From Escherichia coli (GTDB lineage Bacteria > Pseudomonadota > Gammaproteobacteria > Enterobacterales > Enterobacteriaceae), in assembly GCF_002854065.1 (NCBI RefSeq), contig NZ_CP024147.1: 64,000 nucleotides of DNA. One strand, given 5' to 3'. Below are positions 42,501-45,500 of this stretch, piece by piece. Position numbers: made by a program. Within the stretch, counting starts at the first letter, position 1; each line of letters begins with the position of its first letter.

Positions 42501-45500
42501 TTCATTAATGGCGTATTACCGACGCTCGCCAGTTGCAAGGTGTCGATGCGTTGCTCTTGCAGGTATTTACTTGCGCCAAGTGCCAGCGTGTCGGTTGCGC
42601 ACAGTAAGGCGGTAGTTTCAGGCGTAATCACTTTTGCTACGTTCTCATAGCCTTGCTTCATAGCAAGGCCTGGCAGAGCGGCAACGGGATGCAGTTTATG
42701 CGCTTTGCAGAACGCCAGGTAGGCTTCGTGACGTCGCTTCCCGGTCGTCACGTCACTATGCGGCACGCCGAGATAACTGATATTACGATGCCCCTGGTCA
42801 TACAGCCGTTGCATCAGGATCTTGATTGCCCCTTCGTCGTCATAACAGACCGAAGCAAAACCTTTTGCGTCACGCGCCAGCAGAACCAGCGATGACTGCC
42901 AGTGGGCTAACATTTCTTCTGTTATGCCAGTAAAACCGAACAGCACTACGCCGTCGATATTACGCCGTTTCAGCACCCCCAAATGTTCGGCAACTAATTG
43001 TGGGGAAAACTGACTTTCCATCATGATTGGGTCGTAACCTTGTTCATAGAACGCTGGCAGCATGGTTTGAACGGCGAGATTTTCTGACAACGAATCCAGA
43101 CGGGTAACAATGATGGCGACCACTTTATCGCTTTGCCCACGCATAGCGCGCGCAGAGCGGGAAGGGGAAAATCCATGCTGATTCATCACTGCTTCAACAC
43201 GCTCGCGGGTGCGCTGGCTCACGCCGCTTTCGTTATTCAGCACCCGGGAAACTGTAGATTTCCCCACGCCGCTTAAGCGTGCGATGTCTTTGATGGTCAG
43301 CCGATTTTGCATCCTGTTGTCCTGTAACGTGTTGTTTAATTATTTGAGCCTAACTTTACCCGTGCATTCAGCAATGGGTAAAGTCTGGTTTATCGTTGGT
43401 TTAGTTGCCAGCAGGTATTATATCGCCATAGATGCTACGAATATTATTGGATTCTCCTTATTATTTGCGGCGCTTTTTTCACTTACCGGAGGTTATATGG
43501 AACCTGATCCCACGCCTCTCCCTCGACGGAGATTAAAACTTTTCCGGTAAGCCCGTCTTTTCACGGCGTTACCGGATGCGTAAGGCCGTGACGTTTTAAC
43601 GTCCCTGCTCAGCTTTATTACCTTCAGGTAAGGCTTCGCCACGCCTGAAGACATTTCTGTACTGTTTCAGACAGTGCGGAGGGACTCCTTATGTTTAAAG
43701 AAATTTTTACCCGGCTCATTCGCCATTTACCTTCCCGTCTGGTTCATCGCGATCCATTGCCTGGCGCGCAGCAGACAGTGAATACGGCGGTCCCGCCGTC
43801 CTTAAGTGCGCATTGCCTGAAAATGGCGGTGATGCCCGAAGAAGAATTATGGAAAACGTTCGACACCCATCCGGAAGGGTTAAATCAGGCGGAAGTGGAA
43901 TCTGCCCGCGAACAACATGGTGAAAATAAATTACCCGCACAACAACCGTCGCCGTGGTGGGTACATTTATGGGTCTGCTATCGCAACCCATTTAATATTT
44001 TACTCACCATTCTCGGCGCTATTTCTTACGCCACGGAAGATTTATTTGCCGCGGGCGTTATCGCGCTAATGGTCGCTATTTCTACGTTGCTGAACTTTAT
44101 TCAGGAAGCACGTTCCACTAAAGCGGCAGATGCCCTGAAAGCGATGGTCAGCAATACTGCGACGGTGCTGCGCGTAATTAACGACAAAGGCGAAAATGGC
44201 TGGCTGGAGATCCCGATCGACCAGCTGGTGCCCGGCGATATTATAAAACTGGCGGCGGGGGATATGATCCCGGCAGATTTACGTATCTTGCAGGCGCGGG
44301 ATCTGTTCGTCGCTCAGGCGTCGTTAACCGGTGAGTCTCTGCCCGTAGAAAAAGCAGCTACCACTCGCCAGCCGGAGCACAGCAATCCGCTGGAGTGCGA
44401 CACCCTGTGTTTTATGGGCACCACCGTGGTGAGCGGCACGGCACAAGCAATGGTGATTGCTACAGGTGCCAATACCTGGTTTGGTCAACTGGCGGGGCGT
44501 GTTAGTGAGCAGGAAAGCGAGCCGAATGCCTTTCAGCAAGGGATCAGCCGCGTCAGTATGCTGCTGATTCGCTTTATGCTGGTGATGGCTCCGGTGGTGC
44601 TGTTAATCAATGGTTACACCAAAGGCGACTGGTGGGAAGCGGCACTGTTTGCGCTTTCGGTCGCGGTAGGCTTAACGCCGGAAATGTTGCCGATGATTGT
44701 TACCTCGACGCTGGCGCGCGGCGCAGTAAAGCTGTCGAAACAGAAAGTGATCGTCAAACATCTGGATGCTATTCAGAACTTTGGCGCAATGGATATTCTG
44801 TGCACTGATAAAACTGGCACCCTGACACAGGACAAAATTGTGCTGGAGAATCATACCGATATCTCCGGTAAAACCAGCGAACGCGTGCTGCATAGCGCGT
44901 GGTTGAACAGTCATTATCAGACCGGACTTAAAAACCTGCTCGATACAGCGGTGCTCGAAGGTACGGATGAAGAGTCAGCGCGCTCGCTGGCCAGTCGTTG
45001 GCAAAAAATCGATGAGATTCCGTTTGATTTCGAGCGTCGCCGGATGTCGGTGGTAGTGGCAGAAAATACCGAGCACCATCAGCTGGTTTGCAAAGGTGCA
45101 TTGCAGGAAATCCTCAATGTGTGTTCGCAGGTGCGTCACAATGGCGAGATTGTGCCGCTCGATGACATCATGCTGCGTAAGATTAAGCGGGTTACTGATA
45201 CGCTGAATCGTCAGGGGCTGCGCGTGGTTGCGGTGGCGACGAAATACCTGCCAGCGCGTGAAGGAGATTACCAGCGGGCGGATGAATCCGACCTGATCCT
45301 CGAAGGATATATTGCTTTCCTTGATCCGCCAAAAGAGACAACTGCTCCGGCACTGAAGGCATTAAAAGCGAGTGGAATTACCGTAAAAATCCTTACTGGT
45401 GACAGTGAGTTAGTTGCAGCGAAAGTGTGCCATGAAGTGGGGCTGGACGCGGGAGAGGTGGTCATTGGTAGTGATATTGAAACGCTATCTGACGACGAAC

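Follow-up and report, generated by a model that had tools for sequence, protein, structure and literature searches.

The question raised by the DNA immediately upstream of mgtA is whether it is the native control region of this E. coli gene, consisting of a PhoP promoter, the leader ORF mgtL and a switching RNA leader, and, if so, how the switch is read. Our analysis of a 64-kb stretch of E. coli DNA (hereafter, the window) indicates that it very probably is (probability about 0.94), and that the mgtA control region found here is an already known and well-studied one, of which this locus is an ordinary instance. At 100% identity, the DNA matches E. coli chromosomes that carry mgtL and mgtA annotations, and 5423 of the 5426 complete E. 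coli genomes have the region. The first-pass annotation had called the system an established one, and this is borne out by the RefSeq annotation of both genes on identical DNA. In addition, the leader (43428-43690) is base-for-base identical to that of E. coli K-12 MG1655 (window-to-MG1655 coordinate offset, +4423934), so that the published K-12 experiments apply directly; a single SNP relative to K-12 lies in the promoter spacer at 43408, with C here and T in K-12. The window holds an intact copy, with a K-12-identical leader, of a textbook regulatory region, and its value is mainly confirmatory. Computed here were the identity of the elements, the bistability, the covariation for each of the two folds and, by a thermodynamic model, the way in which folding depends on ribosome position; PhoP binding, the responses to Mg2+ and proline, the destabilisation of the ribosome and the part played by Rho are taken from the literature.

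The transporter gene, its leader ORF and the RNA element between the promoter and the gene were located as follows.

43691..46387, + strand: mgtA, encoding a Mg2+-importing P-type ATPase of 898 aa (ORF list, TIGR01524, RefSeq)
43497..43550, + strand: mgtL, a 17-codon leader ORF (translation, RefSeq annotation)
43482..43597, + strand: extent of the match to RF01056, Magnesium-II (Rfam covariance model)

MgtA was identified by an equivalog match to TIGR01524, scoring 1607.5 bits versus a cut-off of 610.75. Comparison of the leader with the mgtA covariance model had been named beforehand as the test able to overturn the identification, and the test was passed: RF01056 (Magnesium-II, the mgtA Mg2+-responsive element) matched with 125.8 bits (E = 5.5e-25), versus a gathering score of 40 bits. 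The match spans model positions 1-115 of 115, i.e., the complete model, and the gene whose 5' leader contains the element encodes a Mg2+-translocating P-type ATPase.

Upstream of this element are the components of a PhoP-dependent promoter.

43386..43404, + strand: PhoP box TGGTTTATCGTTGGTTTAG, two GGTTTA hexamers in direct orientation and 5 nt apart, overlapping the -35 position (sequence, pattern scan)
43416..43421, + strand: -10 hexamer TATTAT, 12 nt 3' of the PhoP box, i.e., architecture I, class II activated (sequence, spacing)
43428..43429, + strand: predicted transcription start (by promoter geometry from Salmonella)

The direct repeat noticed earlier, two copies of TGGTTTA separated by TCGT, was found at 43386-43403, and the canonical PhoP box, (T/G)GTTTA-N5-(T/G)GTTTA, at 43387-43403 is the same site. 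This was the sole match on either strand of the 64-kb window, the expectation from shuffling being 0.04 matches (4 shuffled sequences in 100 contained one), and the 19-mer differs only in its last base from the Salmonella mgtA box, TGGTTTATCGTTGGTTTAA (Salmonella box: PMC3335776). Architecture I is defined by a single direct PhoP box 12 nt upstream of the -10 and overlapping the -35 (PMC3335776); here, the box at 43387-43403 is followed by the 12-nt GTTGCCAGCAGG and then by TATTAT. Of 51 orthologue sequences checked, 47 had a -10 of the form TAT(T/C/G/A)(A/G)T at the same spacing, none being found in the remaining four (L006, L022, L041 and L046), and the order of box, 12-nt spacer and TATNAT was conserved across genera in the orthologue sequences. 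A generic sigma-70 scan detected no promoter in the region upstream of mgtA, a blank that is expected and is not counter-evidence, because PhoP-dependent class II promoters lack a -35 hexamer. Phosphorylated PhoP, formed through PhoQ/PhoP at low periplasmic Mg2+, would bind the repeat at 43386-43404, which would substitute for the -35 element, and as a class II activator would recruit RNA polymerase. In Salmonella, the distance from -10 to +1 of mgtA is 7 (PMC3335776 Table 2) and the mgtA leader is 264 nt long (PMC3335776 Table 1). It is this Salmonella value that the first-pass annotation had given for the leader length; a long leader is indeed present, and it ends, as proposed, at 43690, the last base before the mgtA ATG (43691), but its length in E. 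coli is 262-263 nt by geometry, because the box lies 110, not 112, nt before the mgtL ATG.

The RNA transcribed from this promoter is predicted to contain the following structures.

43482..43551, + strand: stem-loop A, with closing helix CUUACCGGA (43482-43490) paired with UCCGGUAAG (43543-43551) (Rfam alignment, MFE)
43561..43591, + strand: stem-loop B, forming the off conformation with A (MFE fold)
43543..43576, + strand: stem-loop C (on), pairing 43543-43550 (3' arm of A) with 43569-43576 (5' arm of B) (MFE of the 135-nt core)
43585..43608, + strand: stem D (on), pairing 43585-43594 (3' arm of B) with 43599-43608, which carries the nearly invariant GUCCCUG (comparative)
43430..43474, + strand: AU-rich hairpin close to the 5' end, with a U6 run after it at 43474-43479; a variable segment (MFE fold)
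43622..43650, + strand: distal hairpin CUUCAGGU...GCCUGAAG (fold, conservation)

The leader folded more stably than its shuffled versions (z = -3.9), and both stem-loops of the RF01056 family are present, B being supported by covariation and A being almost invariant. Specifically, 97.9% of the cells of stem A were paired in 53 sequences and seven of its nine pairs never varied, and stem B had compensatory double changes in 7 of 12 pairs, with 94.7% of cells paired. Stem C, with an inner helix at 43553-43556:43563-43566, was paired in 88.5% of cells (53 sequences), and stem D in 95%, four of its eight pairs being compensatory. In the alignment, neither stem A nor the core of stem C varies, so that covariation speaks neither for nor against those stems. 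Position 43585, however, covaries with 43567 as well as with 43608, its two alternative partners, and the three positions vary together (C-G-C in 23 sequences, U-A-U in 20), a pattern of modest value that suggests selection on both alternative folds. Folding of the alternative stem-loops was a check proposed in the first-pass annotation: in the thermodynamic model, the A+B and C folds are nearly isoenergetic and mutually exclusive, stem C joining the 3' arm of A to the 5' arm of B and lying within 0.7-1.4 kcal/mol of A+B. In the 135-nt core, stem C has -40.9 kcal/mol (the MFE) versus -39.5 for A+B, and in the full leader A+B has -87.3 versus -86.6 for stem C. The hairpin at 43430-43474 is not conserved, E. 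coli E69 and E. whittamii each carrying an indel in it; together with its U6 run it was rejected as a conserved intrinsic terminator, since some Escherichia have a truncated form and Kosakonia lacks it.

Stem-loop A encloses the mgtL Shine-Dalgarno sequence (GGAGG, 43488-43492) and nearly all of mgtL, with the stop codon (TAA, 43548-43550, inside UCCGGUAAG) in its 3' arm. The leader peptide proposed earlier is the exact 17-aa translation of 43497-43550 and is identical to the MgtL annotated in K-12 and O157. It has the features of MgtL (b4702 and orthologues), namely an M-(D/E)-P-(D/E)-P-T-P-L-P start, a length of 15-17 codons, its own Shine-Dalgarno sequence and a stop in stem A. A 113-aa ORF at 43209-43550 was rejected as a gene, as it is merely the mgtL frame remaining open upstream, antisense to treR. 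Proline codons occupy positions 3, 5, 7 and 9 of mgtL (starting at 43503, 43509, 43515 and 43521), and the description of the ORF as proline-rich holds; the attribution of sensing to these codons needs one refinement, in that current E. coli work credits Mg2+ sensing to the acidic/proline EPDP motif and not to prolines alone (PMC11282234; PMC11552253). The EPDP motif destabilises the translating ribosome, with the involvement of EttA in E. coli (PMC11282234), and proline is also sensed via mgtL (PMC3641672).

In the switch that we favour, summarised for such leaders in PMC11552253 and PMC12360218, the leader of about 263 nt would be off as A+B and on as C+D, and the ribosome on mgtL, inside A, would decide between the two. 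With enough cytoplasmic Mg2+ and charged tRNA-Pro, the ribosome would reach the mgtL stop within the 3' arm of A, covering sequence required by stem C and allowing stem B to form; the pyrimidine-rich flanks of B would then be exposed and transcription would halt before mgtA. At low Mg2+ or proline, the ribosome would stall or drop off at M-E-P-D-P-T-P-L-P, stems C and D would form and sequester the flanks, and polymerase would read into mgtA. The region would in this way integrate periplasmic Mg2+ (through PhoQ/PhoP) with cytoplasmic Mg2+ and the proline/osmotic state (through mgtL translation). We modelled the ribosome by masking its footprint and, as an added assumption required for a clean result, forbidding helices that enclose it: with the P site at mgtL codons 1-11, stem C had P = 0.89-0.99, and with the P site at codons 13-17, stem B had P = 1.00. 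Omitting this steric rule gave mixed results at mid-ORF positions. In the model, footprint masking toggles the folds as the published attenuation model predicts. The A+B/C balance computed thermodynamically is context-dependent, stem C having P = 0.15 in the free leader RNA (43428-43690) and P = 0.95 once the RNA extends 30 nt into mgtA.

One alternative concerns what senses Mg2+. The leader RNA itself may be the primary sensor, i.e., a true riboswitch in which Mg2+ stabilises A+B, with mgtL serving mainly for proline and osmotic stress, a real possibility that we nevertheless regard as the minority one. Rfam classes RF01056 as a riboswitch aptamer, PMC3641672 argues against a Mg2+ role of the Pro-rich ORF, and, with folds so nearly isoenergetic, a small stabilisation by the ligand could tip the balance. 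As summarised in PMC11552253, structure probing has shown Mg2+-dependent alternative structures, and Mg2+-dependent folding alone was enough to modulate Rho termination in vitro. However, recent work in E. coli and Salmonella places the Mg2+ response in the efficiency of mgtL elongation, with roles for EPDP, bL31 and EttA (PMC11282234; PMC11552253). PMC11552253 describes the question of RNA versus mgtL as still debated, and direct sensing by the RNA and sensing through mgtL translation are compatible, not mutually exclusive.

A second alternative keeps the same switch but dispenses with Rho, so that in E. coli the switch would be read by another mechanism, for example termination or pausing independent of Rho, decay by RNase E, or control of translation. 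In the Salmonella mgtA leader, the stop is Rho-dependent and involves no intrinsic terminator. Rho dependence at E. coli mgtA is contested, and the published data conflict. In a rho R66S mutant, the ChIP-qPCR Rho termination score of E. coli mgtA was 1.0 although RNAP occupancy dropped along the gene (PMC5499598), and a 2025 review states that the mechanism "may not be conserved in E. coli" (PMC12360218), with which PMC11552253 agrees. The authors of the ChIP study, however, note that R66S may miss some terminators (PMC5499598), and the EttA work in MG1655 was interpreted with a Rho-dependent terminator (PMC11282234). Term-seq in E. coli placed a 3' end at MG1655 4467576, which corresponds to 43642 in the window, inside the hairpin at 43622-43650; with bicyclomycin, this end received a modest Rho score of 1.56 and was flagged "in Rho termination region: Yes", and its intrinsic-terminator score was 1.46, with a threshold of 3 (PMC7815308 supplement). 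Our own data bear on the same point: a scan of the leader's + strand detected no terminator-like site, positions 43588-43647 have a C/G ratio of 1.6-1.7, and GUCCCUG hardly varies. The E. coli leader, with its pyrimidine-rich, G-poor tracts flanking stem B, has the sequence features of a Rho-dependent attenuator. All of the Salmonella attenuator sequence determinants (among them the flanks, GUCCCUG and the lack of an intrinsic terminator) are kept in E. coli, which bears on the Rho question at E. coli mgtA and speaks against a Rho-free mechanism; we consider such a mechanism unlikely, if by no means far-fetched.

More broadly, E. coli may read the A+B/C+D switch in a manner unlike Salmonella, either without Rho or with an added layer in which GUCCCUG (43601-43607) masks the Shine-Dalgarno sequence of mgtA, but we put low odds on this. 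Two further elements, next to the gene, are relevant to such a layer.

43678..43683, + strand: mgtA Shine-Dalgarno sequence GGAGGG, 7 nt before the ATG (sequence)
43657..43679, + strand: 10-bp hairpin directly 5' of the mgtA Shine-Dalgarno sequence, overlapping its start (fold)

The Shine-Dalgarno sequence is kept as GGAGGGAC in most orthologues, and 7 of the 10 pairs of the adjacent hairpin are compensatory among 41 distinct sequences. In the proposed layer, GUCCCU (43601-43606) would pair in the off state with the mgtA Shine-Dalgarno segment AGGGAC (43680-43685), and in the on state stem D would take GUCCCUG. This pairing was present in the A+B MFE and was paired in 93.1% of cells in the 41 distinct sequences; in one orthologue (L015), GUCUUU stands opposite AAGGAC. 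Its probability was 0.97-0.98 with the ribosome at mgtL codons 13-17 and about 0.5 or less at earlier positions. Covariation for it is weak in the alignment, however, a double change occurring in only one of six pairs, and the conservation of the two segments has other causes (the Shine-Dalgarno sequence, stem D and a rut-like tract). Moreover, the mgtA Shine-Dalgarno sequence was paired in every modelled state, with a mean unpaired probability of 0.01-0.10, and the pairing was not found described in the literature searched, in which the published control is of transcription elongation. We therefore regard this translational layer as improbable.

That a PhoP-like repeat and a short ORF merely co-occur here by chance and have no regulatory function has a likelihood that is practically nil, for although short ORFs are frequent and a PhoP-box match arose somewhere in 64 kb in 4 of 100 shuffles, this explanation is already refuted by the Rfam E-value of 5.5e-25, the order and position of the elements kept in about 50 species, the compensatory covariation and the identity to the experimentally studied K-12 locus.

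The native mgtA control region, as we read this locus, has counterparts in other enterobacteria. A scan with an 18-base pattern across 298 billion bases found mgtL upstream of an MgtA of about 900 aa in 52 of the 52 enterobacterial genomes (species) collected, at 148-295 nt (mostly 190-200 nt), the conservation of the MgtL N-terminus being circular in this set, as the pattern fixed it. Matches in Sphingomonas, Nonomuraea, Boseongicola, Opitutaceae and Actinacidiphila lay inside unrelated ORFs and were taken as chance. The mgtA leader of Salmonella enterica has the same locus, the same 12-nt spacing from box to -10, a 17-codon, Pro-rich mgtL in stem-loop A and the A+B versus C alternative. However, MgtL begins with MEPDP here and MDPEP there, the C-terminal halves differ, the 5' segment is 2 nt shorter here, and Rho dependence has been demonstrated only in Salmonella.

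Several other leaders share parts of this organisation. In the corA leader of Salmonella and E. coli, the upstream ORF corL lies in a stem-loop A three-way junction, A+B is off and C+D is on, the on state hides rut sites, and Mg2+-stimulated translation of the upstream ORF represses the downstream Mg2+ transporter gene; it differs in locus and sequence, corL has a UUG start and only one conserved proline, PhoP does not drive the corA promoter, and a demonstration of Rho dependence exists for E. coli corA (score 3.3) and not for E. coli mgtA (PMC11552253). The Salmonella mgtCBR leader (mgtM, mgtP) is also PhoP-activated and long and lacks an intrinsic terminator, and a short Pro-codon-rich ORF makes read-through into the operon of a Mg2+ P-type ATPase depend on tRNA-Pro charging and on hyperosmotic stress (PMC3641672), but its two ORFs, one ATP-sensing and one proline-sensing, are unrelated in sequence, and the system is absent from E. 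coli. The M-box (ykoK) of Bacillus subtilis, which an Rfam scan did not match in the window, likewise acts from the 5' leader to repress a Mg2+ transporter gene at high cytoplasmic Mg2+, but it belongs to an unrelated fold and family, binds and senses the metal itself, has no leader peptide and works through an intrinsic terminator. In the trpL, hisL and pheL attenuators, the position of the ribosome on a short leader ORF similarly selects the hairpins that decide transcription; those attenuators have an intrinsic terminator and respond to one cognate aminoacyl-tRNA, whereas the mgtA leader has no intrinsic terminator and responds to Mg2+ and proline.

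We found that the interval 43386-43690, the ends of which, as the first-pass annotation had placed them, coincide exactly with the start of the PhoP box and with the base immediately 5' of mgtA, contains a full-length match (model positions 1-115) to the Magnesium-II family of Rfam, RF01056, scoring 125.8 bits where the gathering score is 40 (E = 5.5e-25; Rfam 15, gathering thresholds, whole window scanned). Because the leader matches this covariance model, the reading of the region as an mgtA leader with Mg2+- and proline-dependent attenuation stands, the observation being confirmed and the interpretation supported. 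The annotation had listed the system as an established one, and the mgtA control region is indeed already known and not new.

Features of the mgtA control region (pair counts for stems A to D are from a 53-sequence alignment of the core)
43386-43403: PhoP box
43416-43421: -10 hexamer TATTAT, 12 bases 3' of the PhoP box
43482-43597 (+): match to RF01056
43482-43490 with 43543-43551: closing helix of stem-loop A in the minimum free energy (MFE) fold, surrounding the mgtL Shine-Dalgarno and ORF, with the stop codon in its 3' arm; 9 pairs, 97.9% paired, 7 pairs invariant
43497-43550: mgtL, 17-codon ORF by translation
43543-43550 with 43569-43576: alternative stem C (forced fold); 12 pairs, 88.5% paired, core CCGGUAA/UUACCGG essentially invariant
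43561-43591: stem-loop B in the MFE fold; 12 pairs, 7 with compensatory double changes
43585-43594 with 43599-43608: stem D; 8 pairs, 4 compensatory
43622-43650: distal hairpin, conserved
43657-43679: second distal hairpin, conserved; 7 of 10 pairs compensatory
43691: start of mgtA, 898-aa ORF, Mg2+-translocating P-type ATPase

The mgtA product matched the TIGR01524 equivalog with 1607.5 bits (cut-off 610.75), treR lies divergently upstream (TIGR02405, 590.7 bits), and the gene order is treC-treB-treR upstream and ridA-pyrI-pyrB downstream. The mgtL ORF, with GGAGG four bases 5' of its ATG, translates to the 17-residue peptide previously read from the sequence. A 113-aa ORF at 43209-43550 (+) was rejected as a gene, being the mgtL frame left open upstream over the treR start, antisense to treR. 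The segment 43320-43700 (381 bases) matched many E. coli chromosomes at 100% identity, among them O157:H7 PV15-279 and several further strains, and was present at a coverage of at least 80% in 5423 of 5426 complete E. coli genomes, which carry mgtL and mgtA annotations there; the control region had 5428 matching places, three of them on plasmid records, and one genome carried two copies. Eight differences from MG1655 over 801 bases around the site mean that the window is not K-12. The sole difference within the control region is at 43408, in the 12-nt spacer from the PhoP box to the -10 (C in the window, T in K-12), and over the transcribed leader, 43428-43690, no base differs from MG1655, so that K-12 experiments apply here without reservation. 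In E. coli GCU-H1, a dolphin isolate (NZ_CP178558.1; retrieved locus L060, 3501-4611), the match stops at window position 43432 beside an IS1 transposase. An IS1-associated deletion has here taken out the entire regulated gene, with loss of mgtL, mgtA and part of ridA, and the PhoP box and -10 remain.

The PhoP direct repeat reported 5' of the leader is present as TGGTTTA-TCGT-TGGTTTA, which, read as GGTTTA-N5-GGTTTA, is the canonical PhoP box. No other match to (T/G)GTTTA-N5-(T/G)GTTTA occurred on either strand across the 64 kb, where shuffles that preserve dinucleotides predict 0.04. The Salmonella mgtA promoter (architecture I, class II, alpha-CTD dispensable) has a single box in direct orientation, TGGTTTATCGTTGGTTTAA, followed after 12 nt by the -10 TATGAT, a +1 seven bases further on and a leader of 264 nt (PMC3335776). 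The box in the window differs from it at the last flanking base only and the 12-nt spacing is equal, whereas the -10 is TATTAT. By geometry transferred from Salmonella, transcription would start at 43428-43429, giving a leader of 262-263 nt; the leader is long, as had been claimed, but the length of about 264 nt given earlier belongs to Salmonella. Of 51 orthologue sequences checked, 47 share the layout of box, 12 nt and TATNAT, and in Citrobacter and Kosakonia the upstream half-site degenerates to GTATA. A generic sigma-70 scan found no promoter at this site, as expected where a PhoP box stands in for the -35 hexamer. The 5'-proximal leader (43430-43479), with a predicted AU-rich hairpin followed by U6, is variable: in E. 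coli E69 (L030) and E. whittamii (L044) its length is reduced by 10-12 nt, and most of it is missing from Kosakonia, which has only 40-45 nt between the -10 and stem A.

The full leader folded with an MFE of -87.3 kcal/mol, more stable than shuffled sequences (z = -3.9), with stem-loops A and B formed. Folding of the alternative stem-loops, which had been proposed as a check, showed that forcing stem C in the full leader costs only 0.7 kcal/mol relative to A and B, and in the 135-nt core stem C was itself the MFE structure (-40.9 vs -39.5 kcal/mol). Given this small energy gap, the element is bistable in the fold model.

One scan of a species-representative genome collection with an MgtL N-terminus pattern gave 57 loci, 52 of them in Enterobacteriaceae (Escherichia, Salmonella, Citrobacter, Kosakonia, Leclercia, Atlantibacter, Pseudocitrobacter and other genera); the remaining five, in unrelated phyla and within unrelated ORFs, were taken as chance matches to a short pattern. 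At the enterobacterial loci with enough downstream sequence, mgtL always lay 148-295 nt, mostly 190-200 nt, 5' of a roughly 900-aa ORF starting M-(L/F)-K-N-(I/F)-T-R. The outlying distances, about 290 nt in the Kosakonia-like loci L014, L033 and L054 and 148 nt in Enterobacter sp. ENT03 (L019), point to lineage-specific insertions/deletions in the distal leader, with the core of stems A to D kept. Conservation of the MgtL N-terminus in this alignment is circular, since the search pattern fixed those codons; the same stretch is conserved independently in the Rfam consensus. Position 43585 covaries with 43567 as well as with 43608, its two alternative partners: 23 sequences have C-G-C at 43567/43585/43608 and 20 have U-A-U. 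This three-way covariation is direct sequence evidence indicating that the A+B and C+D conformations are both under selection.

With a 28-nt ribosome footprint masked and helices enclosing the ribosome forbidden, stem C had a probability of 0.89-0.99 when the P site lay at codons 1-11, a range that takes in all four Pro codons, and was abolished from codon 13 through codon 17, as far as the stop, where stem B reached 1.00. The model reproduces the published logic, in which completion of mgtL turns mgtA off and a stalled or aborted ribosome turns it on. It is illustrative rather than decisive, because mid-ORF positions are ambiguous under masking without the steric rule and the free-RNA fold balance moves with transcript length. 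The mgtA coding region is induced via the four Pro codons when proline is limiting and under hyperosmotic stress, according to the account of Park 2010 given in PMC3641672. In E. coli MG1655, low Mg2+ makes ribosomes drop off more readily at the EPDP motif, an effect opposed by EttA, and E2Q/D4N raises mgtL expression and abolishes that of mgtA (PMC11282234). Mg2+ control of mgtL translation needs bL31, deletion of which raises MgtA 13-fold, and whether Mg2+ is sensed directly by RNA or through mgtL elongation is debated (PMC11552253).

No intrinsic terminator was found in the leader. The readout of the Salmonella mgtA leader is Rho (PMC11552253, PMC12360218, PMC3641672), and the E. coli data conflict. 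ChIP-qPCR in a rho R66S strain assigned E. coli mgtA a Rho termination score of 1.0, with the caution from its authors that R66S may leave some terminators unaffected (PMC5499598), whereas Term-seq with bicyclomycin located two 3' ends, at MG1655 4467490 and 4467576 (PMC7815308 supplement). The first corresponds to window 43556, six bases past the stop codon of mgtL in the single-stranded tract that separates stem A from stem B; the second, to 43642, within the distal hairpin and 49 nt 5' of mgtA, and it is flagged there as a Rho termination region (Rho score 1.56, intrinsic-terminator score 1.46; PMC7815308 supplement). Both GUCCCUG and the pyrimidine-rich sequence flanking stem B are retained in the E. 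coli leader, and, judged from sequence, the Salmonella Rho mechanism probably applies to it.

GUCCCUG (43601-43607) hardly varies among about 50 species and is complementary both to the mgtA Shine-Dalgarno region (43678-43685, GGAGGGAC) and to stem B's 3' arm. GUCCCU (43601-43606) is paired in the off-state MFE with AGGGAC (43680-43685), which overlaps that Shine-Dalgarno. A translational layer, in which GUCCCUG could in principle switch between masking this site and forming stem D, is improbable: the pairing is maintained at 93% but almost without covariation, and the mgtA Shine-Dalgarno is freed in no state of the fold model.

Other Rfam matches in the window
2314-2398: RpsF leader, 110 bits, above gathering score
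14476-14598: ES239 sRNA, 154.5 bits, above gathering score
17950-18007 (-): STnc450, 77 bits, above gathering score
18087-18129 (-): ES036/CssrF, 39.3 bits, barely over the cut-off of 37.6
27113-27191, 33354-33431, 60146-60221 and 60242-60317: naRNA4 (nucleoid-associated ncRNA 4, CssrE), 67-80 bits
61151-61345 (+): Ysr276 (Yersinia antisense sRNA family), 180.8 bits

Two of the naRNA4 matches stand in tandem, about 20 nt apart, near 60.2 kb. Provided that the window and O157:H7 PV15-279 are collinear, the Ysr276 match lies antisense inside pepA (retrieved locus L061, 10541-12052, - strand), and it may represent coding-sequence conservation rather than an sRNA.
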